Positions 1-36,741 of a stretch of DNA of 64,000 bases are shown one piece after another. The notes beneath the pieces are model-generated. The model searched no databases. It was not told where the DNA came from and worked only from the letters and a program-made list of their open reading frames with translations. The translations under genes were made by a program, and so were the position numbers. Origin of the DNA: an uncultured Gammaproteobacteria bacterium (lineage in GTDB: Bacteria; Patescibacteriota; Microgenomatia; Levybacterales; GWA1-39-11); assembly GCA_964485575.1 (NCBI GenBank), contig CAZAJO010000008.1:921-64920 (forward strand). Reading direction: 5' to 3'. Within the stretch, counting starts at the first letter, position 1. Each line of letters begins with the position of its first letter.

Positions 1-3000
1 CAACATTTCCATTTGTCCCAAGAGTTGAAACCTGAGTCAGGTTACTTAATAAGATTTGGCCGGATCCATTTGGCGCGATGGTAAGATTTTCATTTGTCCC
101 GGTTGTGATATCTGTTGATACTCCATTGAACGTTAGAGTACCTGTTGTCGTTATGGCACCAGAACTTACTGTTCCGATATTAGTAAGGTTACCTGATGCA
201 TCAATTCTTCTGACTCCATTTGTCTGGATATCTGTGACTCCATTTATTGAAGAGGCAGAAAGTGTTGCTGTTGTACCATTGTCAACGAGTGTAAGCAAAG
301 TATTTGGTGATCCTTCAGCATCCTTTATCGTTAAGGTTCCATTGTTCCCTAATGTTGAAAGCGTAATAGTTGGTGTCGTATTTGAAAGTGTCAGGGGTGA
401 GATGCCTGATAATGTGACAGTACCTGACGCGTCAAGCGTTGTTACCCCGCTTACAGCACCGGCATTTGTGATCCCACCATTATTGTTGTTAAATCCACCG
501 GTGATTGAAGCACCCCCTGCTGATACTGTTAGACCTCCGGTACTTACCGTCAAAAGCCCACCGATAGTTTGAGCAGTTGTAAAGTTATTATTTTGGCCTT
601 TGTACGCAACATTAGATAAGGTACCGGTTGTGTTTATATTGGCGCCATTAACCTGAAGTTGAGAGAGAGCATTAATTGTGTCTACTGAAAGTGTAGCAAC
701 TGTGCCGTTGTCAACGAGAGATAACAATGTATTTGGTGAACCGGCTGAGTCTTTTATAGTAAGGGTTCCAGCTGCATCTCCTGCGCCAACGGTAACAACT
801 GGATTCGTGTTTGAAAGGATGATTGGCGTAGCAGATGAGAACGTATTCGTGTTGGTGAACGTATTTGCCTGGTTAAGATACGCTACGTTTGTGAGAGTTC
901 CAGCAGTATTTATATTAAGTCCATTAAGCTGTATAGCGGTTATCGCATTGAGAACATCAGTCTGAACAGTACCAGAAGCTGTTATATTTGTAGCGCCAGC
1001 TATTGCACCCGTGTTAGTGATTCCACCTGTGTTGTTATTTATACCTCCTGTTATGTTGGCACCTCCCGCAGTCGCTACAAACCCATTAGCAGCAGTTATT
1101 GTTCCAGTTCCGGTTGTTACGATATTGCCTGAGGTCGTCAGATTGCCATTCTCATTTATGGCAAGAGTAGCCGAACCACTTGATTGGATCTGTAAAGCGT
1201 TTTGGATCGATGCATTCGTGTCATTAATGACAAGAGCTGCAGAGCCTGTTCCGGCGTTGGTTATTGTAAATTGTCTAGAGTTGAGGTTTGCAAGAGTAAA
1301 GTCAATGTTTCCTTCATTGTCTGTTGCTGAGATAGTGTTTCCGGCCTCATAAGCTTGTTGCAACGTAACATTGTTAACGTTTGCATTACACGAGGCAATT
1401 TGATTTGAAGCATTTCGACAAAGCCCTGAAGTCCCGTTAGTGCCTAAAGTAGGTACCTGTACAAGATTACTCAAAATTATTTCTCCTGTTCCATTTGGAG
1501 CAATTGTTAGATTCTCATTTGTTCCGGTCGTGATATCTGTACTCACGCCATTGAAGGTAAGCGTTCCGGTCGTAGTTATTGCACCAGAGGATACTGTACC
1601 GATATTAGTGAGGTTGCCTGAAGCGTCTATTCTTGTTGTACCATTTGTTTGTACATTTGATGAAGCATTGACTGTCCCTACAGTCAAAGTACCAACTGTT
1701 CCATTGTCTACTAATGTCAACAATGTATTAGGGGAACCGTTTGAATCATTAATCGTTAAAGTTCCAGCCGCGTTTCCGGCTCCCAAAGTTATAACCGGGT
1801 TAGTGTTTGAGAGAACAACCGGTGTTGCTGAAGAGAACGTATTCGTGTTTGTGAAAGTATTGGCTTGATTGAGATACGCAACGTTTGTGAGAGTTCCAGC
1901 TGTGTTGATGTTAGCCCCATTGAGTTGGATTGCAGTAATGGCATTTAGGATATCCGTTTGGGTAGTACCTGAAGCAGTTATATTAGTTGCACCGGTAATT
2001 GCACCAGTATTTGTTACTCCACCATTATTGTTATCGATTCCACCAGTAATTGAAGCCCCACCGGTTGTTACTGTTAAGGCTCCCCCAATGGTCTGACCAA
2101 CGGTGAAGTTATTGTTTTGACCCTTGTAAGCAACGTTTGTGAGCGTTCCAGTTGTATTGATATTAGTACCGTTGAACAAGAATCCGGTAACAGCATTTAC
2201 GCTTCCGGTAAGAGACAAGTTACCGACAGTACCTGCATCAGTCAATGAGAGCAGGGTATTTGCATCACCATCATTTATTGTAAGCGTGCTATCAACTCCA
2301 GCAGTTCCCAAAATTGCTGTTGGAGCGGCATTGGTAAGTGTTAACGGAGATGCTCCAGAAAGAGTGACTGTCCCTGAAGCGGTGATATTGGTCGCACCAG
2401 CAATAGCACCAGTATTTGTGATTCCACCGGTGTTATTGTTGATACCACCTGTTATGGATGCACCACCTGATGATACAGTCAAAAGGCCAGCGATTGTTTG
2501 ACCGACAGTGAAGTTATTGTTCTGACCCTTATAAGCAACATTTGAGAGGGTACCCGTTGTGTTGATATTTGTTCCGTTCAACAAGAATCCGGAAACTGCA
2601 TTTATTGTTCCTGAAAGCGATAGGTTTCCAACAGTCCCAGCATCTGTTAATGTCAGAAGAGTATTTGGTGAACCTTCAGCATCTTTTATTGTCAGTACCC
2701 CGTTGTTTCCGATTGTTGCAAGAGTAACAATCGGCGCGTTGTCAGAAAGTGTTACCGGATTTGCATTCGAGAATATATTATTTTGTGAGAAAGTATTTTG
2801 TTGATTCTGATAAGCGACGTTTGTGAGTGTACCAGCTGTATTGATATCTGTCCCGTTCAATTGTATGACAGACGTTGCATTGACTGTTGCTCCCTGAATC
2901 GTTCCTGAAGCAGTTATGTTGGTTGCACCAGTGATCGCCCCCGTGTTTGAGATACCACCAGTATTGTTATTAATTCCACCGGTTATTGATGCTCCACCTG

Positions 3001-6000
3001 ATGATACCGTCAAAAGACCTGCAATAGTCTGACCAACTGTGAAATTATTGTTCTGATTTCTATACGCAACGTTTGTAAGAGTACCTGCTGTGTTTATATC
3101 AACACCATTCAATTGAAGTGATGTTGTTGCACTTATTGATGATACAGATAGCGATCCACCATCACCATAGTCAGTTAATGTCAACAGATTATTTGGAGAA
3201 AGCTCAGCATCTCTTATTGTAAGGACTCCATTTGTACCCTGGGTTGCAAGTGTCACTATTGGTGATGCGTTTGAGAGTGTGAGAGGGGATACCCCTGACA
3301 ATGTGACAGTACCGGATGCAGCAATAGTTGTAGCACCTGAAATTGCACCTGCGTTTGTTAAGCCACCGGTGTTGTTATTTATCCCTCCTGTTATTGATGC
3401 ACCACCGGTCGACACAGTAAGAAGTCCAGCGATAGTTTGACCAACGGTAAAGTTATTATTCTGGTTCTTATATGCGACATTTGTGAGCGTGCCTGCGGTA
3501 TTTATACTTGTTCCGTTCAACTGGAACGCAGAAACAGCATTTATAATATCCCCCTCAATAGTTCCAGAGGCTGTGATATTGGTTGCCCCGGTTATTGCAC
3601 CGGCATTTGTTATACCACCCAAATTATTGTCAAGACCGGCAGAGATACTTGCTCCATTCGTCGCTGAAAGTAGTCCCGCAGCTGTTATTGCACCAGTTCC
3701 GGTTGTCACGATATTTCCTGAAGTCGTTAGATTTCCAAGCTCATCAATCGTCAAAGTAGAAGTTCCATTAGATTTGACATTGATAGCAATGCCTCCCGTT
3801 CCGGCAGCGGTGTCGTTGAGAATAAAGGCATTAGCTGTTCCAGCATTTGTAAGGGTGAATGATGTGGGAGAGCCAAGGCCACCTGCTAAAGTAAAGGCGA
3901 TATTTCTTCCCGTAGTTGTCGTTATAGTATTTCCATTGTCATATGCTGTCTGAAGCGTAGCGGTTGCAGCATTACAAGTAGCAATTTGGTTCAGAGCATT
4001 TCGACATAGCCCAATAGTGCCGTTCGTCCCCAAAGTTGGAACTTGTGTAAGATTGCTAAGCACAATTTGACCTGTGCCATTAGGGGTCAGTGTCAGATCT
4101 TCATTCGTACCGGTGGTTATGTCTGTCGAAACCCCATCAAAAGTAAGAGTACCGGTTGTGGTTATTGCACCCGATGAGATTGTTCCAATGTTGACCAAAT
4201 TGCCTGATGCATCAATCCTGTCTGTACCTGAGGTCTGGACTGAGGTTGTTGCATCAAGTGTCCCTCCTTGAATAGTGCCACTTGCTGTGATGTTTGTAGC
4301 TCCAGAGACGGCACCAGTGTTTGTGATTCCACCTGCATTATTATTTATTCCACCGGTAATATTAGCCCCGCCTGCACTCACCGTCAACAAACCTCCGATT
4401 GTCTGACCGACTGTGAAGTTGTTATTTTGACCCTTATAAGCGACATTTGATAGTGTTCCAGTTGTATTGATGTTTGTCCCGTTGAATTGTAGCGCTGTCG
4501 TTGCATTTACATTAGCAACAGTTAAAGTTCCGTTTGTTCCATTATCTGTTAAGGTGAGCAATGTATTTGGAGAGACTTCAGCATCTTTGATAGTGAAAAC
4601 GCCATTGTTTCCAGCTGTTGCAAGGGTAAGTACTGGCGCATTGTTTGACAACGTCAGAGGGGAAGCGCTAGATAAGGTAACAGTTCCTGAAGCATCAATT
4701 GTAGTTGCCCCGCTTATCGCCCCGGCACTTGTTATTCCGCCTGTATTGTTGTTTATTCCCCCAGTTATTGAAGCACCACCTGTTGTGACTGTAAGTGCTC
4801 CACCGATGGTCTGACCGACGGTGAAGTTATTATCCTGTCCTTTGTAGGCGACATTTGAAAGTGTTCCTGTAGTGTTAATGCTTGTTCCATTGAGAAGGAA
4901 AGCAGTAGTTGCGTTGATATTGGCTACGGCAAGAGTTGCAGTTGTACCATTATCGGTAAGAGTGAGAAGTGTATTTGGTGCTCCATTTGAATCTCTTATT
5001 GTCAGAACCCCGGCAGCATTTCCGGCTCCTAACGTCACAATAGGATTTGTATTACTAAAAGTAAGTGGACTTGCGCTTGAAAGAGTAACAGTACCTGATG
5101 CATCAATCGTGGTTGCCCCGGCAATAGCTCCGGTTCCGGTTATACCACCTGCATTATTTGCAATTCCACCGGTAATGTTTGCTCCACCGGCATTGATTGT
5201 AAGACCACCAGTTGTGATCGTCTGAAGAGCAGTGAAAGTATTGGCCTGATTTTGGTATGCAACATTTGTGAGTGTACCTGCAGTATTTATGTCTGTACCA
5301 GCAAGTTGAATAACGCTTGTTGCATTAAGAGTCGCACCTTGAATAGTGCCACTGGCTGTGATGTTAGTAGCACCTGTAATGGCGCCGGTATTGGTGATAC
5401 CACCGGTATTATTGTTGATACCCCCCGTTATTGATGCGCCACCTGATGATACAGTTAAAAGACCAGCAATTGTCTGACCTACAGTGAAATTATTGTTCTG
5501 GCCTTTGTAAGCAACGTTAGTAAGAGTACCTGTCGTATTTATATTTGCACCATTTATTTGAAGAGCAGAAAGAGCATTAACTGTCCCAACGGTAAGGGTT
5601 GCATCTGTTCCATTGTCAACCAAAGTCAACAACGTATTTGGTGAACCGGCAGAATCTTTAATAGAAAGCGTGCCATTGGCGTCTCCTGCCCCGAGTGTTA
5701 TATCTGGTGCCGAATTGGTTAACGTTATTGGCGCGGCTGATGAAAGGGTCACGGTTCCAGAAGCTGCAATTGTTGTCGCACCAGCAATTGCACCTGTGCT
5801 TGTTATGCCGCCTGCGTTATTATTGATACCACCATTGATTGATGCGCCACCAGCACTTACCGTAATACCACCAGTCGTAACAGTCAAAAGACCTCCAATT
5901 GTTTGTCCTACGGTAAAGTTATTATTTTGACCCTTGTAAGCAACGTTAGTAAGAGTACCTGTCGTATTTATATCTGTTCCTCCGAGTGTAAATCCTGTAC

Positions 6001-9000
6001 TTGCATTGACAGTTCCAACAGATAAGGTGCCGACAGTTCCATTGTCTGTGAGCGTAAGAAGTGTATTTGGAGACCCTTCAGCATCAGATATTGTCAGAGT
6101 TCCATCTGTACCTGCAGTTGCCAGCCTTATATTTGGATTTGCATTTGAAAGAGTGAGAGGTGATGACCCGGTAAGAGTTGCTGTTCCGCTTGCCGTTAGG
6201 TTTGTTATTCCTGTAATTGAACCTGTGTTTATTATTCCTCCTGAATTGTTATTAATACCACCCTTAAGGTATGCTCCTCCTGAATTAACAGTGAGAGCAC
6301 CTGCAGACGTGATTGTTCCGGTAGCAGTTGTAGTGATATTTCCGCTAGTTGAAATATTTCCAAGCTCTGAAATCGACAATTTTGAAACACCAGCAGATTG
6401 AACATCAAGAGCAACCCCTCCGGTTCCAGCATTGGTGTCATTGATGACAAATGCATTGGCAGACCCGGCATTCGTTAGAGTGAATTGAGTAGAAAGACCA
6501 GAGTCTAATGTGAAGTCAATGTTGCGTCCAGAGGTCGTAAGGATAGTGTTACCGGCATCATATGCTTGCTGTAATGTAACGGCACTTGCGTTTGCTGCAC
6601 AAGTAGAGAGTTGGTTGCTCGCGTTTCGGCAAACTGTTGTTAACCCGGTCGTTGCTGAAAGGGTAGCAACCTGGACGTAGTTGTTTAGGAGTATTTCGCC
6701 CGTTCCATTTGGTGCCAAAGTAAGGTTCTCATTTGGTCCTGTTGTGATATCGGTTGGAACTCCATTAAATGTTAAAACACCACTTGTTGTTATTGCACCT
6801 GAGCTTATTGTATTGATATTTGTCAGGTTACCGATTACATCTAATCTTGTTACTCCATTAGTTTGAATATTATTTGTAGCATTGAGGGTAGCTCCCTCAA
6901 TTGTGCCACTGGCTGTAATGTTTGTTGCACCTGTTATTGCACCGGTATTTGTGATTCCACCTGCGTTATTGTTGATGCCTCCTGTTATTGATGCACCTCC
7001 TGTTGTGACAGTAAGTGCTCCACCGATGGTTTGACCGACGGTGAAGTTGTTATCTTGACCCTTATAAGCAACGTTTGAAAGCGTACCGGTTGTATTAATG
7101 CTTGTTCCATTGAGAAGGAAAGCTGTAGTTGCGTTGATATTGGCTACGGCAAGAGTTGCAGTTGTACCATTATCGGTAAGAGTGAGAAGTGTATTTGGTG
7201 CTCCATTTGAATCTCTTATTGTCAGAACCCCGGCTGCATTTCCAGCTCCAAGTGTGATTATTGGAGTTGTATTTGAAAGGGTTAATGGCGAACCACTGGA
7301 AAGTGTTACCGTTCCAGAAGCAGCAATCGTTGTTGCACCGGCGATTGCACCGGTATTTGTTATACCACCTACATTATTGTCTATACCCCCAGTGATATTT
7401 GCTCCACCAGCACTGATGGTAAGACCGCCCGATGATATTGTTTGAAGAGCGGTGAAAGTATTGGCTTGATTTTGGTATGCAACGTTTGTGAGAGTTCCTG
7501 CTGTGTTGATATCAACTCCATTAAGTTGAATAACTGACGTACCATTAATGGTTGCTCCTTGAATAGTGCCACTGGCTGTGATGTTAGTAGCACCAGTAAT
7601 GGCGCCGGTATTGGTGATACCACCGGTATTATTGTTGATACCTCCAGTTATAGATGCTCCATCCGCACTGATAGTGAGTCCGCCGGTTGTGATCGTCTGA
7701 AGAGCCGTAAAGGTATTTGATTGATTTTGGTAAGCAACGTTTGTTAATGTACCTGCAGTGTTGATATCAACCCCACCGATCTGCAATGTCGTTCCAGCAT
7801 TTACTGATCCTGTAACAGAAAGATTCCCGACAGAACCAGCATCTGTCAAGGTTAGCAGAGTATTTGGAACACCTGCAGAATCTTTGATCGTAAATGTTCC
7901 ATTGGCATTTGCAGCACCCAATGTAACAATCGGATTCGTGTTACTAAATGTAAGAGGGGAGCCAGCAGAGAGTGTTACAAGTCCAGATGCTCCGATTGTT
8001 GTAGCACCTGAGATAGCACCAGTGTTTGTGATGCCACCTGTGTTATTGTTAATTCCTCCAGTTATTGATGCGCCACCCGTTGTAACCGTTAAAGCTCCAC
8101 CGATAGTCTGACCCACGGTGAAGTTGTTATCCTGTCCTTTGTAGGCGACATTACTAAGAGTGCCGGTTGTGTTGATGTTTGTTCCTCCTAGTAAGAATCC
8201 GTTCGCTGCATTTATTGTTCCTGTAACCGAAAGATTTCCAACTGTACCGGCATCGGTAAGAGTCAAAAGTGTATTTGGAGAACCTTCTGCATCTTTTATT
8301 GTTAATACTCCATCAACTCCAGCAGTTGCCAGAGAGATATTTGGAGTCCCGTTGGTAAGAGCAAGAGGATTTGCCCCTGACAATGTAACGACGCCTGATG
8401 CATCAATTGTTGTTGCTCCGGATATTGAAGCCGTGTTTATTATTCCGCCATTGTTGTTGTTGATACCACCAACGACTGAAAGACCACCAGCAGAAATAAT
8501 CTGTGCAGCCGTAAATGTATTTGATTGATTTTTGTATGCAACATTGGACAAAGTGCCTGCTGTGTTAATATTTGTTCCATTCAATTGAATTGCAGTAATT
8601 GCATTGAGTATATCGGTCTGAGTCGTTCCACTTGCTGTAATATTTGTAGCACCCGTAATTGCACCCGTATTTGTAATGCCTCCGGTATTATTATTAATAC
8701 CTCCAGTTATATCGGCTCCACCAGCTTGAATAGCAAGTCCCCCTGTTGTGATTGTTTGACCTGCTGTGAAAATATTAGCTTGGTTGAGATAGGCAACATT
8801 CGTAAGCGTACCTGCAGTATTTATGTTGGTTCCATTCAATAGATAACCGGTCCCAGCATTTATTGTTCCTGTGACTGAAAGATTGCCAACGGTACCGGCG
8901 TCGGTAAGTGTTAGAAGTGTGTTGGGGGAACCTGCAGAATCCCTTATTGTCAAAACACCATTCGCATTACCAGCTCCTAATGTCACTATCGGATTGGTAT

Positions 9001-12000
9001 TACTAAAAGTTAATGGAGATGCAGCAGATAAAGTAACAAGTCCTGATGCTCCAATTGTTGTTGCACCGGAGATAGCACCGGCATTTGTGATACCACCAGT
9101 ATTATTGTTGATGCCCCCGGTTATTGACGCTCCACCCGCACTTACGGTTAATGCTCCTGCTGATGTTATTGTTCCAGTTCCAGTTGTTGCGATGTTTCCA
9201 GATGTTGTGATGGTTCCAAGTTCTGTGATTGTCAAAGCTGAAGCGCTTGCAGACTGTATTTCAAATGCGATTCCACCTGATCCGGTACGTACGTCATTTA
9301 TGACAAACGCGTTCGCGCTTCCGGCATTCATGAGAGTGAAGGACGTTGGAGTTCCCGAATCCGTGTTTTCATCGTAAAGCGTAAAGTCGATATTTCGACC
9401 GGAGGTTGTAAGAATTGTATTCCCAGCATCATAAGCAAGTTGAAGCGTAACGCCATTTGAATTTGGTGCACATGCAGACAAGAAGTCACCTGCATTGCGG
9501 CACAAAGCCGTCGAGCCGTCAGGTGAAGCAAGAGTTGGAATCTGTATCGTATCATTGAGGTTGATAACTCCCGATCCATTAGCAACGAGTGTAAGATCTT
9601 CATTGCTTCCAGTTGTAATGTCTGTTGCAGCACCAGTTATAGTAACGGTTCCTGCGATATTTTGTGCAGTTGTGAAATTGTTGTTCTGGCCTTTGTAAGC
9701 AACATTTGTGAGAGTTCCGGTTGTGTTGATGCTTGTGCCATTCAATTGGAACACTGAGGTAGCATTGATAGTCGCACCTTGAATTGTGCCTGAAGCGGTG
9801 ATGTTTGTCGCTCCTGTTATTGCACCCGTGTTTGTGATACCACCGGTATTATTGTTGATGCCTCCGGTGATATTTGCACCACCAGCATTTATTGTAATAC
9901 CTCCTGTATTTATCGTCTGGCCGATGGCAAAAAGATTTGCCTGATCAAGATATGCAACGTTTGAAAGAGTTGTACCAACATTTATGTTGGTACCGTTCAG
10001 TAAAAATCCGGTTGTTGCATTGATGTTGGCAACTGCAAGTGTTGCATTTGTTCCATTATCGGTAAGTGTCAGAAGGGTATTTGGTGACCCTTGAGCATCT
10101 GCAATAGTGAGGACACCATCAACTCCGGTGGTTGCCAATGTTAGAACTGGTGCTGCATTTGAGAGAGTAAGCGGGGAAGCACCTGATAATGTCACGACAC
10201 CCGAAGCAGTGATATCTGTTACTCCAGAAATAGCTCCTGTGCTTGTTATTCCACCAGCGTTATTATTGATACCTCCGGTTATTGATGCGCCTCCGGTTGT
10301 GACGGTTAAAGCTCCACCGATGGTTTGGCCAACCGTGAAGTTGTTGTTTTGTCCTTTGTATGCGACGTTTGTGAGAGTTCCGGTTGTGTTGATGTTTGTT
10401 CCGTTCAATAGATATCCTCCAACTGCATTGATTGTTCCAGTCACTGAAAGATTTCCTACTGTACCAGTATCGGTTAATGTAAGAAGCGTGTTTGGAGAAC
10501 CCTCTCCATCTCTTATCGTGAGCGTACCATTGGATCCTGCTGCAGCCACAGTTATTGCAGAGGTGGTCGCAGTAAGTGCGAGTGGGGTACTACTTGAGAG
10601 TGTAACAAGGCCAGATGCATCAATCGTTGTTGCACTGCCAATAGCGCCGGTATTTGTTATACCTCCATTGTTGTTATTAATACCCCCAGTGACGGATAGC
10701 CCACCTGATGAGATTATTTGTGCTGCAGTGAATGTATTGGATTGATTCTTGTATGCAACATTTGTGAGAATACCTGCGGTATTTATATCAGTTCCGTTCA
10801 GCTGAAGAGCAGTAATAGCATTGATGATATCTCCCTGAATCGTTCCTGACGCAGTAATATTTGTAGCACCGGTTATAGCACCTGTGTTTGTGATACCACC
10901 AGTATTGTTGTTAATTCCACCGGTTATTGATGCGCCACCGGTTGTGACGGTTAAGGCTCCACCGATGGTTTGGCCAACTGTGAAGTTATTGTTTTGTCCT
11001 TTGTACGCAACGTTTGTGAGAGTTCCGGTTGTGTTGATGTTAGTTCCACCCAAAAGTATTCCTGTTCCTGCATTTATGGACCCTGTCACTGAAAGATTAC
11101 CTGTAGTACCGGTGTCTGTTAATGTTAGAAGGGTATTTGGAGCTCCTTCTGCATCTTTTATAGTAAGGACTCCATTCGTGCCAGCTGTAGCAAGAGTAAT
11201 TACTGGAGCACTATCTGAAAGAGTTAGAGGTGCGGCATTTGAAAGGGTCACAACTCCAGAGGCGTCAATTGAAGTTGCGCCACTTATCGCACCGGCATTT
11301 GTGATACCCCCTGCGTTGTTGTTGATACCACCGGTAACATCAAGCCCACCGGCTTGGATTGCAAGTCCCCCAGTCGTAATGATCTGACCGGCAGTGAAGG
11401 TATTTGATTGGTTTTTATATGCAACGTTTGTGAGGGTGTTTGCAGTATTTATATTTGCACCATTCAATTGAAGAGCACTTGTCGCATTGATCGTGCCAAC
11501 TGTCAAAGTTGCAACAGTTCCGTTGTCAACAAGAGTAAGAAGTGTATTTGGTGTTCCATTTGAATCTTTGATTGTAAGCGTACCGGCAGCATTTCCAGCA
11601 CCCAAAGTGATGATTGGAGTAGTGTTTGAAAGCGTAAGTGGGGAGGCTCCTGATAGCGTCACTACACCTGAAGCAGCAATTGTAGTTGCTCCGGCGATTG
11701 CACCTGTGTTTGTGATGCCACCATTATTATTGTTGATTCCACCAGAAATGTTTGCACCCCCCGCAACAACAGTTATTCCGCCGGTATTGATGGTTTGTCC
11801 CAAGGTGAATGTATTAGCAGTATCAAGGTACGCAACGTTTGATAATGTACCACCGGTATTTATATTTACACCGTTGAGTTGAATTGCTGTTATCGCATTT
11901 AATATATCTGTTTGCGTCGTTCCTGATGCAGTAATATTTGTAGCACCGGTTATGGCACCCGTGTTTGTGATGCCACCAGTGTTATTGTTAATTCCACCTG

Positions 12001-13350: not shown

Positions 13351-16300
13351 TCGTTGAGGCATTTCCGCTTTCATCAATGGTAAGTCTTCTATTTCCACCA
13401 GACTGGATTTCAAGAGCTACTTGGTTTGGAGCGGCATTATTATCATTGATAATAAATGCCGATGCTGTTCCTTCGTTTGTTAAAGTAAGTGAGGTTGCAG
13501 CATTGAGACCGGAAGCAAGAGTAAAGTCGATGTTTCTACCCGAGTTTGTAAGAATTGTATTTCCGTTGTCATAGGATGATTGCAAGGTGCCTGCTGATGA
13601 GCCAACGTCGCAGAGAACTACTTCATCATCTCCATTAGTACAAAGAGGACTTCCAACAACAGTAACTAAGTTCTCTATGGTTACCGTACTGTTTGCTGCA
13701 AGTGTAGTGAATTTTCCTGATGAGCGCGTAGTGTTTCCGATTGGTGTATTGTCTATAGATCCTCCCGTTATAACAGCGTTACTTGAAGAGAGATTGTTTG
13801 CAGTAACTGCACCAACGAGATTTACCGTATCTGTTCCGGATCCGATATTAATAAAGTCTGGACTCGTGTTGTCTGTTCCGATATTGACGGTGTTACCGGT
13901 CGACAACGTTCCAATATTGATTGAGCCATTGGCTGATGCTCCGGCTCCTGCATTAATTGTGACTGATCCACCGGTTGATCCTCCGGCAGTAGATGTCCCA
14001 GCAACTAGTCTGAGATTTCCACCCGTAGCATCAACAGTAGAGCTTGCCGGATTGATAGTGATATCAGTTCCACCAACGAGGGTAGTAATGTCTGATGTGT
14101 TGTCTCCGGCAAGATATATAACTCCTGCCTCAGACACCTTAAGGGTTGATGCGCCATTTGACTGAAGATCAAAGAATGTACCGCCTCCCCCAGCTGATGT
14201 GTCATTGAGAATGAATGCACTTGCAGTACTTTGATTTTCCAAAGTGAAAGATGTTGGAAGATTAAGACCCGGAGCCAATGTGAATGCAATATTTCGTCCG
14301 TCATTTGTAAGGATTGTATTTCCATTATTGTATGAGGACTGAAGGGTTCCGGTTCCTGATCCTATTGAACATTTGATTATGTTATCGAATGAATCTATAC
14401 ATAGCGCAGTTCCTGAGCTTGTCGTCAAATTTTCGATAAGGACAGTGCTATTGGCAGCAAGTGTTGTGAATGCACCAGAAGAGCGGACGGTAGCACCAAC
14501 GCTCGTTCCATTTATAGTTCCTCCAGTAACAGTCACTCCGCTTGAGTTGAAGTTGTTAGCTGTAACTGACCCGACAAGGTTTATGGTGTCTAACAAAGAC
14601 CCTATATTGACAATATCGGCCAAGGTATCATTTGTTGCTATATTTATGACATTTCCCCCGGTTCCGGTTCCTATATAGATAGTCTTTGCACTATTACCAA
14701 TACCTAGATTAATGTCTCCTGTCGTTCCTGTATCAAGAGTTAGGGAATTGGAACCTGTAGCAGATATCGTTCCGACTCCAGCAAAAGTTAGATCGGTTGC
14801 ACTAACGCCAATTGTGTCAAGACTAATGACGCCCGTTAATGCTCCAAGCGTTGTGACATTTAATCCTCCGTTTGATGTGACCGCAAAAGTACCGGTAGCA
14901 TTGCCAATTGCTACATTTCCTGTTCCGGTTGTTGCGATGTTTACATCGGATGCACCTGAAGTTCCAAGATTTGTCGTACCTGTTGATGAAAGAGTTGTAA
15001 AGGCTCCCGTTGATGGGGTTGTTGCACCAATTGCAGTACTATTTATACCTGTTGCGGTTGCTGTGAAGTTGCCTGAAGTGATCAGTAAATTGTTGACTCC
15101 GGCATTGATAGATGATGCAGACAAACCTGAAAGACTGAGTACCCCGGAAGTTGCGGTAAGATTGATTGCCCCGGTCGTCAGGGTCAACCCATTTGATGCT
15201 GTCAAAAGACCAGCAGATGTTATAGTACCGGTTCCGGTTGTTGCTATATTTCCACTTGTTGTAAGATTTCCAAGCTCATTTATGGTCAAAGTTGCAGATC
15301 CGGAGGACTGAATCTCAAGAGCAGTATTTGTATTCTCGTTATTGTCGTTGATGATAAATGCAGAAGCTGTCCCTTGGTTTGTGAGAGTCAATGAGGTCGT
15401 CTGATCTTGACCCAATGTAAAGTCAATACTTCTTCCAGGAGTCGTTGTTATAGAGTTCCCAGTGTTGTAAGCAGCCTGCAGTCCAAATGGTGCACCGTTA
15501 CAGTACGCAAGGTTGTTACTTACGTCCAAACAAAGGGTGTTCCCATTCTGAGTCTGTAGACCATTGATCTGGATTCTCTCATTAGATGTTGTATTGAACA
15601 CTACGTTGTTACCGGTTGATGGTGTAAATACAGCAGATCCTGAAGCATCAAATGAATTTCCATTTGTGATAATCACATTTCCGTTGAAAGTAGAGATCCC
15701 AGCAACATCTAGAGTACTTCCAAGAGTAGTAGCTCCAGTCCCAACGCTAAAGGTATTGCTACCGGTGACCGTTGTATTCCCGTTCAACGAAACGTTACCG
15801 GTACCCGTGGAGAACGTGTATGCTCCAACTTGGGTAATATTATTATTGAAAGTTCCAACTCCATTGACAGTCAATGCACCTCCAAGAGTCGTAAGACCGG
15901 TTCCTACGGTAAATGTATTTGCTCCCGTTACTGATGTATTTCCATTCAGAAGAGTCAGTGCATTAATGTTGAGGTTCCCAATCCCATTTAATGGGCTTAG
16001 TGTGATTTCACCTGTTGTGTCACCACCGATGGTGAGTGCACTAAGCTCTGTGGTCTGAATAGAACGTGGTGCTCCTGCAAGTGTCAAATTACCAGAGATA
16101 GATGCATTACTGGTCGTCGTAAGCAAAGTGAAATTACCGGTTGAAGGAGTAGTTACTCCAATTGCAGTACCGTTGATACCCGTTGCGGTAGTATTGAAAT
16201 TATTTGATGTGAAAGTCAAATTGTTTCCTCCGGTGTTGATACTTGATGCAGAAAGCCCAGAAAGATTTAATGTTCCCGAAGTTGCGGTTAGATTGAGTGC

Positions 16301-19300
16301 TCCTGTTGTTAATGTCAGTCCGTTTGATGCTGTCAAAAGACCTGCAGAGGTTATTGTTCCAGTGCCGGTTGTAGAAATATTGCCACTAGTTGTTAGATTT
16401 CCAAGCTCATTGATAGTGAGTGTAGCAGATCCCGAGGACTGGATCTCAAGGGACGTATTGGTATTTGCATTGTTATCGTTAATGATAAATGCACTAGCTG
16501 TACCAAGGTTTGTTAGTGTGAGTGAAGTTGTCTGATCCTGACCCAATGTGAATGCCAAATTTCGTCCAGGAGTTGTCGTTATCGTATTTCCTGTATTATA
16601 TGCAGCTTGAAGTCCGAAAGGTGCTCCGTTACAGTACGCAAGGTTGTTACTTACGTCAAGACATAGAGTATTACCATTCTGAGTCTGTAGACCATTTATC
16701 TGTATCCTCTCAGTACCAGTAGTATTGAATACTACATTGTTCCCAGACGAAGGAGCAAAAACAGCAGCGCCTGAAGCGTTGAATGAATTACCTGTTGTTA
16801 TAAATACGTTACTGTTAAATGTTGCAGTGCCCGCAACATCAAGAGTGCTTCCAAGAGTTGTAGCACCGGTTCCGACAGTAAAGGTATTGGATCCGGTAAC
16901 TGAAGTGTTTCCATTGAGTGAAACATTACCAGTTCCTGTTGAGAATGTGCCTGTCCCTGTTTGGGAAATGTTGTTGGTAAATGTGCCGACTCCATTAACT
17001 GTTAGTGCTCCCCCGAGTGTTGTAAGCCCGGTTCCAACAGTTAAAGTGTTCGTACCTGTAACTGATGTATTACCGTTTAGAGTGATTGCGCCAGTTCCAG
17101 TTGTGAATGTGCTAGCACCTACCTGGCTTATGTTGTCATTAAATGTGGATACACCTAAGACATTCAATGTACCGTTGAATGCTGAATTTCCATTGACCGT
17201 AAAGTTACCTGCACCTGAAAGAGGGGATACCACAATATTTCCTGTCGTATTTCCACCAATTGTAAGAGTGTTGTTCTCGGTTGTCTGGATCGAGCGGGGA
17301 GCACCGGCAAGAGTTAGATCTCCAGAGAATGATGCAGTACCAGTTGTTGTTAGATTTGTGAAATTACCCGTCGATGGAGTAGTAGCACCGATGGCAGTGT
17401 TGTTTATGCCAGTAGCAGTGACGGTAAAATTACCGGATCCGATGAGTAAATTATTTCCTCCAAACTGTAGTGATGAAGCAGATAGACCAGACAAATTGAG
17501 TGCTCCTGATGTACCGGTGATATTAACAGCACCAGTCGTTACGCTGAGTCCGTTTGACGCTGTCAATAGCGCATTAGATGTTATAGTGCCTGTTCCGGTA
17601 GTTGCTATATTTCCACTCGTTGTAAGATTTCCAAGCTCGTTTATAGACAAAGTTGCAGATCCCGAAGACTGGATTTCAAGAGATGTATTAGTATTGGCAT
17701 TATTGTCATTGATGATAAATGCTGAAGCAGTACCCAGATTAGTCAGGGTAAGAGATGTTGTCTGATCTTGACCCAATGTAAATGCAAGGTCACGACCCGG
17801 AGTTGTCGTTATCGTGTTTCCGGTGTTGTATGCTGCTTGAAGTCCAAATGGAGCACCGTTACAGTATGCAAGATTATTGCTTACATCCAAACAAAGGGTG
17901 TTCCCATTCTGAGTCTGTAACCCATTGATTTGAATTCTTTCATTTGAGGATGTATTAAATACGACATTATTGCCGGTAGAAGGTGTAAATACAGCTGATC
18001 CTGAAGCATTGAATGAGTTACCAGTTGTTACAAATACGTTGCCATTAAATGTTGCTGTACTAGCAACTGTAAGCGTACTGCCCAACGTTGTCGCACCAGT
18101 TCCGACTGAGAACGTATTGCTTCCTGTGACAGATGTATTTCCATTCAAAGAAACTGTTCCAGTCCCTGTTGAGAATGTACCGGTGCCAACTTGGCTAATA
18201 TTGTTGTTGAATGTTGCAGCCCCTTGTACACTCAAAAGGCCAGTGATGTCGGTGTTACCAGCAATCTGCACAAGTCCAGTCGTATTACCACCGATAGTCA
18301 GAGTGTTAAAGTCGGTCGTCTGAATTGAGCGTGGGGCACCTGCAAGAGTCAGATTCCCAGAGAATGAGGCATTCCCCGTAGTTGTGAGTGTAGTGAAATT
18401 ACCGGTGGAAGGGGTAGTGGCTCCTATTGCAGTATTGTTGATTCCGGTCGCAGTTGTATTGAAGTTTGATGAGGTGAATGTCAGAGCATTTGCACCTGAA
18501 TCAAATGTAGACGCACCAAGTCCAGTAAGAACAATTGCGCCTGAAGAACCAGTTATGTTTACAGCTCCAGCTGTGACTGTAAGGCCATTTGAAGCAGTTA
18601 ATAATCCGTTAGATGTTATTGTTCCCCCTGAGGTTGTGAGGATATTGTCAATAGTTGAAAGAGTTCCATTCTCACTTATTGTAAGCGTAGCCGAACCACT
18701 ACTTTGAATAGACAGTGCATTTTGGATAGAAGCATTGGTGTCATTGATAACAAATGCTGCACTTCCGGTTCCGGCATTGGTGAGCAGGAACTGACGTGAT
18801 GAAAGATCAGCAAGTGTAAAGTCAATATTCCCATGAAGATCGTTAGCAACTATGGTATTTCCTGAATTGTATGCCTGCTGTAGGGTAACATTAAGAGCGT
18901 TTGATGAACAAATAGAAAGCTCGTTTGCCCCATTTCGACAAACAACTGTCGCACCAACGGTTCCTGAAAGATTTGGAATCCTTGTTATAGTATTTAGTAC
19001 TATTTGTCCCGTTCCGTCAGGTGAAAGAGTAAGATCCTCATTTGAATTGGTTGTGATATCTGTTGCAGCACCTGAGAATATGAGCCCTGTAGATCCTATC
19101 GATTTATTTGAAAGAGTCTGGGTCTGATTAGCAAAAATGAATGTGTCATCTGCAGTGAGTGCTGGAATGGTGGCAAATCTTGACGCAGAGGGAGCAAGAG
19201 ATGTGATTGTCGTAGTATTAGTCGTTCCAAGTACTACCTGGTTTGTTGTGTTTGTGAGATTTAGAGACGCAAATGTTGGCGATGATGTCGCAGCGATACT

Positions 19301-22300
19301 TTGAGGTAATGAAAGAGAAATAGTACCAGACCCATTAGCCACGAGAACTTGATTTGAAGTACCCGTAATAGTATTCAAACTAAACCCTGACCCATTCCCT
19401 ATGAGAAGAGCTCCATTTGGAGCAGCAGAACTATCCACCCCGGTTCCACCTCTCAAAGGTGCGAGTTGTTGTTCTGAGGCAAGAACACCTGATGCGTTAT
19501 TGATGACAACTCCAGCTGTTGTAAACGGAGATATGGTGACAGATGTATTTGCCGTAACTGTTGTGAATGCTGCAGTTGACGGAGTAGTGGCTCCAATAGC
19601 AGTGCTATTGATTCCAGTTGCCGTGACGTTTAAGTTTGCTGCTCCGATGAGTAAATTATTTCCCCCAAACTGTAGAGATGAGGCAGATAGACCTGAAAGA
19701 CTGAGGGCTCCTGACGTGCCTGTGATATTGACTGCCCCTGTCGTTACGGTAAATCCATTTTGTGCTGTAAGAAGTCCTGCGGATGTTATGGCACCGGTAC
19801 CAGTAGTCAGGATATTTCCGCTAGTCGAAAGGTTACCAACAGACGTTAAGTTTCCGTTCTCAGAGATAGTAAGAGTTGCGCTACCACTTGATTGAGCTTG
19901 GAATACATCCTGAAGTGAGGCATTCGTGTCGTTTATGACAAAAGCAGCTGACCCAGTCCCTGCATTTGTAAGCAAAAATTGACGGGATGAAAGGTCAGCA
20001 AGAGTAATGTCGATATTACCTTCACCATCGGTTGCGCTAATAGTGTTTCCTGCTTCGTAAGCCAGTTGGAGCGAAATATTAGCAGCATTTGCAGGACACT
20101 CAGTTATCTCGTTTGTTATATCATCACGGCACAAGGTGGTCGCGCTTAGTCCAGCAGCTGGAAGATTAAGTAGTTTGGTTATATTTGAAAGGACGATCTG
20201 ACCCGTTCCATCAGGGGTAATAGTAAGGTCTTGATTCGATACGGTTGTGATATCGGTCCCTACACCATTAAAGGTTAGTGACCCTGTCGCTGTGATTGCT
20301 CCCGTTGACAAGCTATTGCTTGTGATCGAACCAGTTGTTATAAGATTTCCATTCTCAGAAATCGTGAGCGTTGCTGAACCGCTACTTTGAATAGATAGAG
20401 CATTTTGGATAGAGGCATTCGTGTCGTTTATGACAAATGCTGCTGACCCAGTACCGGCATTGGTAAGGAGGAATTGGCGAGATGAAAGGTCAGCAAGAGT
20501 GAAATCGATATTACCTTCACCATCGGTTGCGCTTATAGTGTTTCCTGCTTCGTATGCCAGTTGAAGCGAAATATTAGCAGCATTTGCCGGACACTCAGTG
20601 ATTTCATGAGAAGAATCATCACGGCAAAGTGTTGTTCCACTTACACCTGCTAATGGTAAGTTCTCTAATCGTGCAATATTTGAAAGTACGATTTGACCGG
20701 TTCCATTAGGTGTAAGCGTAAGATCTTCGTTACTGACCGTAATCAGGTCATTTGCAGCTCCAGAGAACACGAGTCCTGATGCTCCAATAGTTTTGTTAGT
20801 CAACGTTTGCGTTTGTGCCGCAAAAATAAAGGTGTCATCAAACGTGAGCGCTGGAAGTGTTGCAATACGTGGAGCACCCGGTGCTGGAGAATTTATTGTT
20901 GTAGTGTTTATTGTTCCTAATGACAATTGGTTTGTCGTTGCAGCAAGTCCGAGATTTCCTGCATATGAAAGTGTCGCAGCGTTGTCTCCCGCATTATTCA
21001 CGAATGCCAATTGGTATGTCGGTGCAGTTGTTAAGATCTGATTTTGGAGACTGAATGTCAGGTTATTTGACGAAGCCCCATTCCAGTAGGATCCTTGTAA
21101 TGACAATAGGTTTGAATTATTCAATGTTGCTCCACTCGTTGATGTGGCAAGTCTCAAAAGAGAGAGGGTATCAACTCCTGTCTGGTCGCCGACATTAAAA
21201 GCTGTCAGAGAAGTTATCGTCGTACCATCGTCTGTAAAATTAGAATCCCCGATATTTGATCCCGTTACGGTAAACTTGGCAAGTCTATTAAGAGTTCCAG
21301 CTCCTCCGACAACTCCACCGGCTCCAGCACAGTTTCCGACAGTAAGACAGACTGTCCCGTCATAGTCTGGAATACTTATTGTCCTCAAAGTTCCAGTTGT
21401 TATTTGACTAAGATCAAATAAGAATTGCTTTGTATTATCACCGTCATCCTGGAATGTGATTGAATTATCTGTAAGTAGTTTGTTTGTTAGAGTCTGGCTT
21501 TGGTTGGCAAAGATAAATGTGTCATTTGCACTAAGTCCTGGGATCGTAGCAATCCTTGAAGCTGCTGGCGCAACCGAGGAGATAGTCGTTGTGTTCCCAG
21601 TTCCCAAAACCAATTGATTTGTTGCCGCAAGGGAAGTAAGAACTCCTGCAGTCGTTAGATTCCCGTTCTCATTAATGGTAAGAGTAGCAGAGCCACTGCT
21701 TTGAATAGATAGGGCATTTTGTACGGACGCATTTGTATCATTTATGACAAATGCAGCACTTCCTGTACCTGCGTTTGTGAGCAGGAACTGTCGTGATGAA
21801 AGATCTGCAAGAGTTAGTGAAATATCACCAAACGAGTTAGAAGCGCTGATTGTGTTTCCAGCTTCGTACGCTAGCTGAAGGGAAATGTTTGCTGCATTTG
21901 CTGGACATTCGGTGACCTGATGAGATAAATCATCGCGGCAAAGTGTCGTTGCGGCAACACCTGCGACTGGCAGGTTCTCAAGACGCGTGATATTGGAAAG
22001 AACAATCTGGCCGGTTCCATTTGGAGTAATGGTAAAGTCCTCGTTGGCAAGCGTTGAGATGTCTGTTGCAGCACCAGAGAAAACAAGACCAGTCGTACCA
22101 ATGGTCTTATTGGTGAGGGTTTGAGTTTGCTGCGCGAAAATAAATGTATCATCGACGGTAAGTGCTGGTAATGTTGCAATTCGTGGGGCAGAAGGCGCAA
22201 CCGAACTTATTGTTGTCGTGTTTCCAGATCCCAAAACCAATTGATTGGTTGCCGCTTGCGCTGTCAAAGTTGTTGCTGAAAGGATAGACCCGGTTCCGGT

Positions 22301-25300
22301 GGTTAGGATATTTCCCGACGTTGATAGGAGCCCATTTTCATTGATGGTAAGAGTTGCGCTACCACTGCTTTGGATAACGAGTGAATTATTGACAGAACCG
22401 CTCGTATCATTGATTACAAAAGCACTTGCTGTTCCGACGTTTGTTAGAAGGAGGGAAGTCGAAAGACCTGATCCTAATGTAAAGTCGATATTCCTATTTG
22501 CTGTTGTAGTTATCGTATTTCCTGAATCATAAGCAAGCTGCAATGAGACGTTGCTAGCATTTGCCGGACATTGTGTAATCTCGTTACTGACGTTATCACG
22601 ACAAAGGGTAGTTGCGGCAACTCCGGCAGCAGGAAGACTACCAAGTCTTACTGTATTCGAAAGAACAATTTGCCCAATCCCTGAAGCAGACAAAGTCAGG
22701 TCTTCATTGCTTGCGGTCGTTATGTCTGTGGCAGCACCTGAAAAGATAAGACCTGTAGATCCGATTGTCTTGTTACTTAATGTCTGCGTTTCGTTTGCAA
22801 ATACAAAAGTGTCTGACGCATTTAAAGCAGGTATCGTTGCTGTCCTTGGGACTGACTGTGAGTTGGAGTTTATAACAAGCGTATTACCGGCAGCACCTAG
22901 CGTAAGCTGATTACTTGTGTTTGAAAGTGTTTGCGATGCGAATGTCGGTGACGAAGTAGCGGCAATATCTTGAGGCGTAGAAAGAACAATTGTTCCACTA
23001 CCGTTCACAACATTTACCTGATTTGATGTACCTGAAATGTAATTAAGACTAAGTCCGGTACCATTGCCTATTAAAATCTGCCCAGGCAAAGCTGCTGATG
23101 TATCAAGGCCTGTTCCTCCTCGAGCCGGATTGAGTTGAGCGATAGTTGAGAAAACTCCCGAAGAATTATTGATTACAACTCCATCTGTTATGAAGCTTGA
23201 AAGAGTAAAAGCACCATTTGCCGACAGGTTAGTAAAAGCACCCGTTGAAGGGGTAGTACTACCCACAGCAGTACTGTTGATTCCGGTAGCTGTTGTGTTG
23301 AGGTTTGCTGATGTAATGAGTAAGTTATTTACTCCAGTTGATATACTTGAACCAGATAGGCCTGACAAATTAAGCGTACCTGCAGTAGCGGTAAGGTTAA
23401 GAGTGCCGGTTGTTAATGTAAGACCGTTTGATGCAGTAAGTGTTCCGGCTGAAGTAATAGTACCTGCTCCGGTTGTTAAGATATTTCCACTCGTTGACAA
23501 AATACCGTTCTCGTTGATGGTAAGTGTCGTTGAACCACCTGATTGCACTTCCAATGCATTCTGGATAGCAGCATTTGTATCATTGATAACAAGTGCTGAA
23601 GAGGCGGTTCCTGCATTTGTTAGGGTTAATGCACGGGCACTATCAGATGCCAACGTAAAGTCTAAGTTGCCGATAGAATCTGAAACGCTTATCGTGTTTC
23701 CGGAATTGTAAGCAAGTTGCAGTGAAATGCCACCAGCGTTTGCTGGACATTGAGTTATCTCGTTGCTGACGTTATCGCGACAAAGAGTTGTAGCACTTAC
23801 CCCAGGCCCTGGAAGATTTAAAAGACGGGTAGTGTTGGAAAGAACGATTTGCCCTGTCCCATTTGGAGTAATGGTGAAGTCTTCATTGGCAAGCGTTGAA
23901 ACATCAGTCGCTGCTCCTGAAAAGGTAAGGCCGGTCGCACCGATAGTCTTGTTGGAAAGAGTCTGTGTTTCATTGGCAAAGACAAATGTGTCATCCGCAG
24001 AAAGTGCTGGTAGTGTCGCAATTCTGGCAGCTCCCGGAGCAGGAGAGGTAATAGTTGTCGTGTTACCGGTCCCCAAGACTATCTGGTTTGTAACAGCCTG
24101 AGCAGTCAATGTTGTTGCAGAGACAATTGTGCCGGCACCAGTCGTTAGGATATTGCCGGATGTTGATAAATTATCTCCAGCAGTTGTTGGGGCGATTGTA
24201 GAGGTTCCATTGTTGCGGGTGAAAAATCCGACAGTACCCGAAGTATTGGTTGTTGTTATATTTCCAGAACATACAAGATTGCCAGTTGCGTCATCAATTG
24301 TACATCCCGTTGTGCCTGATCCCCCTGCAAGAGAAACATCCCCATCAGACGCAATTAGGAGCGCTTGCGCTCCTGTAGTGGTGTTGTATATCGTGAATTG
24401 TGACGTATCCACATTCACGGAATAATCATCCTGACCCACATCACTATCCACGAAAAATACCGAAGGATCAGAATTGGCTATAGTGATATCTCCGCCTGCT
24501 GTAGTTGTACCGGTGAGATAAAGATTTCGATAACGCCTGAGCGCAGAACCGAGATCGTAGGTATCATCAGCACTTGGTCCGATACTTCCAGCAACCTCAA
24601 GCCTAAAAGGATTACCATCAGCATCGAGGTCATCTGGTGCAACACCAATACCGAGACGGCCATTCGGAATCGTGACGAGTCCCGCTCCAATCGTCGCAGT
24701 GTCTAGGGCAGAACCGATATTGATGATATCAGCGGCAGTGTTGTCCGTTGCAATATTTATGACGTTTCCAGCCGTACCTGTGCCGACATTGATGATTTTT
24801 GCATTGTTTCCGGTGCCAAGATTGACTGTGCCGGTCGTGCCACTGTCAAGCGTCAAAGAGCTAGCTCCAGCAGAGAGCACTGACCCTGCACCTGTAAAAC
24901 TAAGGATTGTACCGCCTAGGTTAAAGTTGTTAGCAACGCCTGTTACTGATGTCAAGGTAGAAGATAATTGGATGTTGGCTTCTCCTGATGGACTTTCTGT
25001 GACATCAAAATCTCCACCAAGAAAATCCAGAGCATTTATCACATTCGAGACGACTACATCATTCTCTTTGATAGTTGCAACAGCAAAAGATGTGATATTA
25101 GTCCAAGAAGGAATGCCTGATGGGTCAACTGTTAAAAACTGTCCAGTCGTTCCGATCGGCAGCCCTGCAAGAACGTCAGTGGAAGCTGCATAGATGATGT
25201 CACCGGTCGTGTATGTAGAAAGTCCAGTTCCACCTACACCAACACTTATAAGTCCCGTCTTTATTGCTTCTCCGGCTACCGATCCTCCAGACCCAATTGT

Positions 25301-26873: not shown

Positions 26874-26883
26874 AAGATCCTAT

Positions 26884-29287
<2,404 letters not shown>

Positions 29288-29290
29288 ATG

Positions 29291-31425: not shown

Positions 31426-31426
31426 A

Positions 31427-36708: not shown

Positions 36709-36721
36709 AATCAACTACATA
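36693..36721 (+). promoter_or_regulatory. divergent promoter candidate (NUDIX gene)
   Basis: TTGACC (36693-98) - N17 - TACATA (36716-21). This box overlaps the track start ATG 36721, which favours the start at 36742 (SD-like AAGGAAA upstream). Confidence 0.4.
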
Positions 36722-36741
36722 TGCAAAAGGAAAAATTTAAG

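Follow-up and report, generated by a model that had tools for sequence, protein, structure and literature searches.

A recurrent cysteine-pair module in a giant predicted surface protein from a probable member of the Microgenomates group

A large part of bacterial diversity belongs to Patescibacteria, and, to our knowledge, the way in which they locate their hosts and stay attached is mostly obscure except in Saccharibacteria. Giant membrane proteins of Patescibacteria, also called the Candidate Phyla Radiation (CPR), have been proposed to act in host attachment, for example in Vampirococcus lugosii (PMC8080830). Bdellovibrio recognises its prey by means of trimers resembling phage tail fibres (PMC10769870). 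The present work concerns a 64,000-nucleotide stretch of contig CAZAJO010000008.1 (assembly GCA_964485575.1), called the window below, whose minus strand carries a giant gene for a putative surface protein. An earlier note on this DNA had proposed that paired cysteines mark conserved modules organising the whole protein. Sixteen full copies of such a module are found in the window, each within one of a series of related large units, and the module recurs in other genomes with its cysteine pair preserved.

A giant protein with sixteen module copies

A single frame of the minus strand is free of stop codons from position 26194 down to position 2 (8,731 codons). The first plausible start, an ATG at 26113, gives a product of at least 8,704 amino acids that continues past the left window edge, so that more than one third of the window is taken up by this gene. 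The protein is rich in threonine (18%), glycine (13%) and asparagine (11.5%), with alanine, leucine, serine and isoleucine also abundant; cysteine accounts for 0.45%, while histidine (five residues in 8,704), methionine and tryptophan are nearly absent.

The 39 cysteines are distributed in a strikingly regular manner. One of them, at residue 24 (codon 26042), stands alone in the part predicted to be cytoplasmic. The other 38 lie in the predicted ectodomain, where they form one C-x2-C pair, six C-x10-C, eleven C-x9-C and one C-x5-C, every residue having a neighbour within 11 positions. When 38 cysteines were placed at random among 8,584 residues (200,000 trials), 3.4 were paired on average and 16 at most. 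The cysteine codon coordinates of the earlier note proved exact throughout, and the full translation contains no unpaired ectodomain cysteine. The statement that cysteines beyond the membrane helix occur only in pairs therefore stands; its second half, that they occur only as C-x9-C or C-x10-C loops, does not, since the C-x5-C pair at codons 21347 and 21329 had been overlooked.

A hidden Markov model (HMM) built from the 16 window copies of the module was scanned against the giant protein. It returned exactly 16 full copies (167-229 bits), no copy devoid of cysteines and one copy cut by the edge of the window (Table 1). Seventeen modules had been counted between positions 1388 and 24304; that figure has to be revised, as the first loop of this interval contains no module and the seventeenth copy is the truncated one. 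Pairwise identity among the window modules ranges from 32 to 78%. As previously described, all 16 loops (aa 778-8232; aa, amino acids) are followed by the motif LQxAYxxGNTI ... IDFTL ... LTNxG ... AFVIND ... IQSxG ... ExGN. The upstream element, TDITT..NE(D/N)LT..PNGTGQIVL, had likewise been ascribed to all 16; it precedes only 11, other sequence being found at aa 2741, 3151, 3528, 3905 and 4158, and occurs a twelfth time at aa 8667, within the edge-cut module. The smallest spacing between modules, from Cys 1830 to Cys 1995, is 165 aa, in agreement with the minimal unit proposed.

Measured from the first cysteine of one module to the first cysteine of the next, the repeating units span 165 to 1,132 aa and contain one module each. 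Where units resemble each other in length, they match from end to end at 45-77% identity: the segments 2741-3150 and 3151-3527 share 77% identity, and three units of about 860-960 aa in the C-terminal half share 58-63%. This similarity shows that the predicted ectodomain was built by repeated duplication of large units, each with one module. In the C-terminal half, the long tracts between modules contain sub-repeats of their own, such as GGINNNxGGITNTGAIxGA and NVAYxxQ, which recur at intervals of about 85 or 137 aa; these tracts gave no family match in Pfam, NCBIfam or PHROGs.

The N-terminal region is of a different nature. Residues 3-52 matched the helix-turn-helix (HTH) families HTH_17 (20.9 bits, cut-off 27) and MerR_1 (16.3 bits, cut-off 21.6) below threshold in Pfam, and the N-terminal domain matched the MerR-like phrog_2474 in PHROGs (E=1.4e-4). 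Homologues carry precomputed N-terminal matches to PF12728, PF00376 or PF13411. The mean Kyte-Doolittle hydropathy exceeds 1.6 in a single 19-residue window of the whole protein. Because this lone transmembrane (TM) helix follows a basic KPTKK stretch and the N-terminus has HTH matches, the protein is probably anchored by a single pass with its N-terminus inside, leaving about 8,580 residues in the extracellular space. The succession of an HTH_17/MerR-type domain, a single TM helix and a giant extracellular part recurs in homologues P0004, P0158, P0162, P0165, P0170 and P0173. It is seen in many CPR giants, also in those lacking the module, and is the source of the "MerR regulator" naming: homologues are entered in databases as "hypothetical" or, which is misleading, as "MerR family transcriptional regulator, partial".

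Table 1. Positions of the giant gene and its features in the window (aa, amino acids; pLDDT, predicted local distance difference test).
Feature	Positions	Strand	Basis
Giant open reading frame, T/G/N/A/L/S/I-rich putative surface protein	2..26113	-	Stop-free frame, composition, collinear orthologue
Putative cytoplasmic helix-turn-helix (HTH_17/MerR-like), aa 3-52, with lone Cys24	25958..26107	-	Sub-threshold Pfam and PHROG matches
Sole predicted transmembrane helix, about aa 98-117, KPTKK just before	25763..25819	-	Kyte-Doolittle
C-x2-C pair, aa 258/261, conserved base region	25331..25342	-	Cysteine codon listing
First C-x10-C loop, aa 604/615, outside any module	24269..24304	-	Marginal module HMM scores only
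Module 1, C-x10-C, Cys 778/789	23444..23947	-	HMM 220 bits
Module 2, C-x10-C, Cys 1171/1182	22265..22768	-	HMM 227 bits
Module 3, C-x10-C, Cys 1392/1403	21602..22105	-	HMM 213 bits
C-x5-C pair, aa 1589/1595	21329..21349	-	Cysteine codon listing
Module 4, C-x10-C, Cys 1830/1841, abuts module 5 (165-aa unit)	20288..20791	-	HMM 223 bits
Module 5, C-x10-C, Cys 1995/2006, copy used for AlphaFold	19793..20296	-	HMM 216 bits; pLDDT 81
Module 6, C-x9-C, Cys 2392/2402	18602..19105	-	HMM 226 bits
Module 7, C-x9-C, Cys 2741/2751, without upstream TDITT/PNGTG element	17555..18058	-	HMM 185 bits
Module 8, C-x9-C, Cys 3151/3161, without upstream element	16325..16828	-	HMM 191 bits
Module 9, C-x9-C, Cys 3528/3538, without upstream element	15194..15697	-	HMM 192 bits
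Module 10, C-x9-C, Cys 3905/3915, without upstream element	14063..14566	-	HMM 167 bits
Module 11, C-x9-C, Cys 4158/4168, without upstream element	13304..13807	-	HMM 177 bits
Long inter-module tracts, C-terminal half, about aa 4290-8500, about 19-24 sub-repeats	613..13246	-	Motif counts, sequence listing
Module 12, C-x9-C, Cys 4406/4416	12560..13063	-	HMM 217 bits
Module 13, C-x9-C, Cys 5538/5548	9164..9667	-	HMM 205 bits
Module 14, C-x9-C, Cys 6495/6505	6293..6796	-	HMM 229 bits
Module 15, C-x9-C, Cys 7370/7380	3668..4171	-	HMM 207 bits
Module 16, C-x9-C, Cys 8232/8242	1082..1585	-	HMM 220 bits
Start of 17th module, upstream element only, aa 8652-8704	2..160	-	HMM positions 2-51, 36.6 bits, E=1.9e-13

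Distribution of the module and conservation of its cysteines

No single module scored above threshold against Pfam, NCBIfam, PHROGs or PDB sequences, which bears out its description as previously unnamed, and a profile search of PDB sequences with the module gave no match even at E<=10. The ectodomain had no match in NCBIfam or PHROGs, and a literature search returned no description of the module or of the architecture.

When 1.84 billion cluster representatives were searched exhaustively with the module profile, only 177 proteins were identified at E<=1e-3, 30 of them at E<=1e-30, most being fragments. This is the reliable count; another homologue search yielded 14, its candidates having been saturated by low-complexity words. 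With an alignment of six modules as query and one genome per GTDB species, 32 module-bearing loci were recovered, all from metagenome-assembled genomes (MAGs). The module is thus real, recurrent and conserved beyond the source genome, as had been claimed. Where MAGs bear informative names, the module is restricted to Levybacteria/Levyibacteriota, Amesbacteria, Kerfeldbacteria, Saccharimonadales and "Patescibacteria group", mostly of the Microgenomates group; the taxonomy places Levyibacteriota in this group of Patescibacteria. The host of the giant gene is probably a member of the Microgenomates group of Patescibacteria. Most of the module-bearing MAG records (L001-L032) bear the title "uncultured Gammaproteobacteria bacterium", while Sulfotelmatobacter or Limnocylindrales appear in a few titles and Eisenbacteria in the name of one related protein match. 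These labels look wrong or like placeholders: the largest of the records, a 1.61-Mb chromosome and a 1.32-Mb contig, are small, the genes of the window have a CPR look, and the module otherwise occurs in records named as Patescibacteria.

When the window modules were aligned with copies from 29 GTDB loci (84 sequences in all), both cysteines, L76, Q77, Y80, G83, L99 and N111 proved invariant. A set of 149 unique, nearly full-length copies from other proteins or genomes includes 147 with two cysteines, one with three and one with none; no copy has a single one. The two residues are separated by nine positions in 73 of these copies and by ten in 63, a few having 2, 5, 8, 11, 14 or 16. Among homologues that carry the module and measure 500 aa or more (43 proteins), 440 of the 476 cysteines have a partner within 20 residues. 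In these alignments the cysteine pair is the most conserved feature of the module. Its joint presence, combined with tolerance in loop length, is to be expected of a disulfide that closes the loop, and the bond, although inferred, is well motivated by the sequence comparisons. The other pairs have counterparts as well: a CxxC and, some 330-450 aa further on, the first C-x10-C are found in P0001, P0003, P0004, P0007, P0155 and other homologues, and the order C-x10-C, 185 aa, C-x5-C is repeated in P0001, P0003 and P0007.

Predicted fold and competing explanations

Structure prediction by AlphaFold (monomer only) was unusable with the 16 paralogues alone (pLDDT 60) and improved to pLDDT 81, with a predicted template modelling score (pTM) of 0.53, when 51 sequences were supplied. 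In the resulting model of module 5, short strands at residues 55-57 and 64-66 surround C56 and C67 and are followed by a helix at 76-81 (LQLAYE); residues 130-152 form strands and are the best predicted part (pLDDT about 93). Elsewhere the chain is confidently modelled yet extended, with no intrachain partners. Foldseek searches with this model placed HylP and T4 gp34 at the top among PDB entries, and top matches among viral models included tail fibres and S74-domain proteins; scores were weak and none significant. Further matches were Hyal_Sk, the phi92 endosialidase, a tailspike depolymerase, a Bdellovibrio fibre β-helix, the endosialidase chaperone and a chain from a Tle1-VgrG spike complex (6sjl_A). 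The fold signal is consistent but weak, and as far as the model goes it would suit a chain needing partner chains, as in a trimeric fibre, better than a globular domain folding on its own.

A search of 2.9 million viral contigs matched only module residues 5-59, from the upstream element to the first cysteine, at 45-56% identity (an example is SNGDIAIAPDGTGQIVLDGLNWPTADGVADYILKTDGAGNLSW). One of the viral-contig open reading frames (ORFs) has a match, at 3.6e-8, to phrog_677, annotated as "baseplate wedge tail fiber protein connector". The viral copies lack cysteines in the hairpin region aligned to the module's loop, where TTLCRDxxxxEITxC in the module stands opposite QVLKT-DGxGxLSF/W in the phage sequences; the alignment is short, making homology a lead only. 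It suggests that the cysteine hairpin may be a stapled version of a common fibre hairpin. The pattern SNGD(I/L)xIxP(D/N)GTGQIVL..(L/W)P(T)A(D)G was seen in viral-contig ORFs of loci L078-L082, sometimes twice per protein.

The C-terminal end can be seen in a module-bearing locus with a complete C-terminus (L034). There, the last module is followed by CxxC, C-x5-C and C-x9-C pairs, then by a GVGVGTTSPLAALDIRG segment, the sequence GGADYAEYF, a heptad-like stretch and a terminal ...NWWIVN before the stop. GGADYAEYF, considered as a candidate motif of Peptidase_G2/S74-type chaperones, was dropped when no match was found in Pfam, PHROGs or PDB sequences. Peptidase_S74 (PF13884) was found only in other CPR giants, ones without the module. 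Several CPR giants end alike after a heptad-like stretch, with ...NWWIVN (L034, about 13418-16117), ...DWWIVGTK or ...FSWWIVN (P0165, P0168); this ending, which has no family match, may represent a conserved signal or a cap domain at the terminus.

We postulate that the protein forms a surface fibre that is very long, resembles phage tail fibres and is probably trimeric, and in which a disulfide-locked β-hairpin node in each duplicated unit stabilises the shaft and sets its register, an account to which we give about an even chance of being correct. The cytoplasmic HTH and the single TM helix would anchor the fibre, with more than 8,580 residues outside the cell. Each module comprises an optional strand element, N(E/Q)DLTxxP(N/D)GTGQIVL, which phage tail proteins share; a predicted β-hairpin with an invariant cysteine at either end; a short predicted helix (LQxAY) leading into GNTI; and about 70 residues of chain modelled as β-rich. 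An intrachain disulfide between the two cysteines would lock the hairpin and turn each module into a stable, register-setting node within a low-complexity, probably homotrimeric β shaft. Such nodes could help a long fibre to fold and, once outside the cell, to withstand proteolysis or unfolding. The most likely role of the whole fibre would be to reach and bind a host cell, as judged by analogy with the fibres of phages and of Bdellovibrio and with the giant surface proteins of other CPR bacteria.

Several observations weigh against the stapled shaft. In the orthologue, conservation of modules against tracts is 0.916 against 0.913 and 0.909 against 0.934, and in distant homologues the comparison is mixed. 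The modules are thus no better conserved than the tracts and give no extra sign of a special role; the idea that they are conserved islands among variable tracts is ruled out by these comparisons. For the same reason, the earlier view of the module as a joint between repeat tracts is unsupported: duplication of super-repeats accounts for the regular punctuation by modules without any need for a hinge function. In the model of module 5, strand limits assigned by DSSP do not by themselves set C56 directly opposite C67. No gene for a disulfide-forming enzyme (Dsb, VKOR or thioredoxin) is found in the 64-kb window. The C-terminus of L034 shows no Peptidase_S74/G2 chaperone in Pfam, PHROGs or PDB sequences, the end of the window protein itself lying beyond the edge. 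Finally, DUF4251 (PF14059) weakly matches the part of the module running from LQxAY to ENGN, which could mean a different, non-fibrous fold.

This last point underlies the reading of the protein as beads on a string, where each module would be an autonomous, monomeric β-sandwich or β-roll domain with an internal disulfide, possibly a distant relative of DUF4251, and the tracts would be low-complexity linkers, an arrangement known from giant monomeric adhesins. The downstream half of eight of the 16 modules matches DUF4251 at E<=1, the score summed over the repeats of the first 4,333-aa segment scanned reaches 41.6 bits (cut-off 27), one homologue has a precomputed PF14059 match, and the best-predicted residues of the model form local β-strands. 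However, no single module attains the threshold of the family (the best stretch, aa 1848-1923 in module 4, has E=1.1e-4 and about 17.5 bits against a gathering threshold of 27). Moreover, the confident model is mostly extended and lacks intrachain partners, the top fold matches are all chains of intertwined trimers, and the flanking tracts are conserved β-type repeats rather than linker-like sequence. This reading is in essence that of the earlier note; a domain in the sense of an autonomous globular fold is not supported, and we regard beads on a string as doubtful. If three chains run side by side, as the fibre-like matches imply, the exactly two cysteines present in each node along the whole length might instead bond to neighbouring chains and staple the register of the trimer through cystine knots, as in collagens. 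AlphaFold, however, sets both residues on one local hairpin of the same chain, and the pair is kept at spacings of 8 to 16 residues (mostly 9 or 10, with few of 2 or 5), a latitude that suits closure of a loop better than a fixed interchain geometry; interchain bonding seems to us quite unlikely.

It is very improbable that the cysteines serve as metal-binding or redox-active thiols. Some phage fibres do bind metal ions on the threefold axis, and a CxxC pair lies near the N-terminus of the giant protein; yet histidines are as scarce as described above, no other conserved ligand residues accompany the cysteines, the location is extracellular by prediction, and no metal-binding or thioredoxin-like family is matched. 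The chance that the 26-kb ORF is an artefact of collapsed or chimeric repeats is close to negligible. Fragments and frameshifts are frequent in assemblies of related giant genes, and the gene in the window has no end; nevertheless, 26 kb are free of stops in one frame, and the modules are divergent rather than collapsed. In addition, the independent GTDB contig CAZDED010000003.1 (L001 and L026), which extends about 6 kb past the point corresponding to the window edge, shows collinearity over aa 940-3140 and aa 5440-7586 (identity about 91-93%), and metagenome ORFs of more than 5,300 aa display the same layout. The giant gene is chromosomal and conserved, and no product of misassembly.

The stapled trimeric shaft can be extended into a bolder proposal. 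In the Microgenomates group, a homotrimeric fibre made of phage-tail-fibre blocks and encoded by a conserved chromosomal gene beside the atp operon, with stapled hairpins as register nodes and a TM tether to the DNA-binding-type HTH domain, would constitute a host-recognition organelle whose engagement the HTH could report. The nodes would be of a new kind, derived from an un-stapled fibre hairpin (QVLKTDGxGxLSW in phages) by gain of the disulfide. Taken as a whole, this proposal is unlikely. The length of such a fibre would presumably be roughly half a micrometre, given the rise per residue of solved phage fibres.

Genomic setting and comparison with known systems

Genes for an F-type ATP synthase (26601-31461, minus strand) lie directly upstream of the giant gene, on the same strand. 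A distant homologue (P0155, 4,088 aa, on the 214-kb contig L083) is also found just downstream of the atp operon (L083 1306-6081), and it is this shared place that identifies the gene as chromosomal. In L083, a further protein of 495 aa, whose N-terminus is of the same HTH type, is encoded between atpC and the giant gene. In the same contig (20219-28267), P0155 stops and an ORF in another frame goes on for at least 2,683 aa with seven further divergent modules, all of whose cysteines are paired; the break is either an assembly frameshift or a truly split gene. The G+C content of the giant gene is about 0.43-0.46, compared with about 0.35-0.42 for the remainder of the window. The opposite, plus strand has twelve ORFs of 150-346 aa between 78 and 25193 (for example 16725-17765), which are most likely by-products of the stop-poor codon composition of the gene.

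Together with the ATP synthase operon, the remaining genes of the window, including those for PBP1, GH130, RecG, RNase III, TrmD, GyrB and a type IV pilus cluster, fit a CPR chromosome. The pilus cluster (47565-60804) is a full one, with PilM, several N-methyl pilins, a prepilin peptidase, PilB, PilT and PilC. Inside it lies a gene resembling TMEM260/PMT_2-type protein O-mannosyltransferases (53369-55393), and the threonine-rich giant protein or the pilins could be substrates of its product. Three NUDIX hydrolase genes are found within 4 kb around the PBP1 gene (36721-37622, plus strand; 40005-40478, minus strand). No tRNA or Rfam element was detected in the window. A link to the giant genes of Omnitrophota was considered, and nothing connecting the two was found.

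The largest module-bearing records measure 1.3-1.6 Mb, and the genome is on this account probably very small; a gene filling over one third of 64 kb in such a genome must matter to the cell. Nothing is overturned by these results, as giant repetitive surface proteins with paired cysteines are already a familiar theme. What is new is the unnamed module with its cysteine pair, in a protein of a known kind, the repetitive fibrous surface proteins. The value lies mainly in CPR cell biology, in protein-family curation and in correcting the "MerR regulator" annotations. The module HMM provides a handle to find and delimit fibre genes in fragmented assemblies, the module of about 165 aa is a tractable piece for structural work, and the disulfide-locked hairpin amounts to a biochemical prediction on extracellular oxidative folding in CPR bacteria.

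Comparison with described adhesins and families sets the protein apart in several respects. The tandem Ig-like, BIg, cadherin or VCBS repeats of Bap/SiiE/LapA-type adhesins are absent from its 8,704 aa as judged by Pfam and NCBIfam. As for YadA-type adhesins, there is no match in Pfam to their Hep_Hag or HIM head and neck repeats or to the YadA β-barrel anchor, and the anchor is an N-terminal TM helix, the C-terminal end lying beyond the window. In DUF4251, profile positions 49-125 align to the LQxAY-ENGN part in half of the copies and leave the cysteine hairpin and the upstream element uncovered; the literature describes no function for this family, whose name was met only as a single mention in a transcriptomics study of Bacteroidetes. 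The giants of Vampirococcus lugosii (PMC8080830) are similar in being very large, membrane-anchored proteins of ultra-small episymbionts and proposed attachment fibres. They measure 1,392-4,163 aa and carry known adhesion domains (WD40, PKD, integrin, fibronectin, DUF11), whereas the window protein has at least 8,704 aa and no recognised extracellular domain.

The mosaic adhesive trimer (MAT) fibres of Bdellovibrio bacteriovorus (PMC10769870; PDB 8ojn) offer a parallel in that they are tail-fibre-like surface fibres of an organism living on other bacteria. They are, however, far shorter, belong to a diderm envelope and bear diverse binding heads at their end; the structural match is very weak and no sequence relation to the giant protein exists. 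The triple-stranded β-helix shafts of phage tail fibres and spikes (the hyaluronate lyases HylP1-3 of streptococcal phages, PDB 2c3f/2wb3/6wv2; T4 gp34; the endosialidase stalk) are the best and sole consistent structural matches, albeit with weak scores. No significant sequence similarity links the giant protein to any solved fibre. Unlike phage fibres, it is encoded in a chromosome, has an N-terminal TM anchor, is 10-30 times longer, is predicted to contain disulfide hairpins absent from the phage proteins, and has no identified enzymatic or receptor-binding head. What the two share is an extended chain of low charge, rich in threonine, glycine, asparagine and serine, and the strand element N.D(I/L)T(I/L).P(D/N)GTG..(V/L), common to the tail proteins of viral contigs and to the giant protein.

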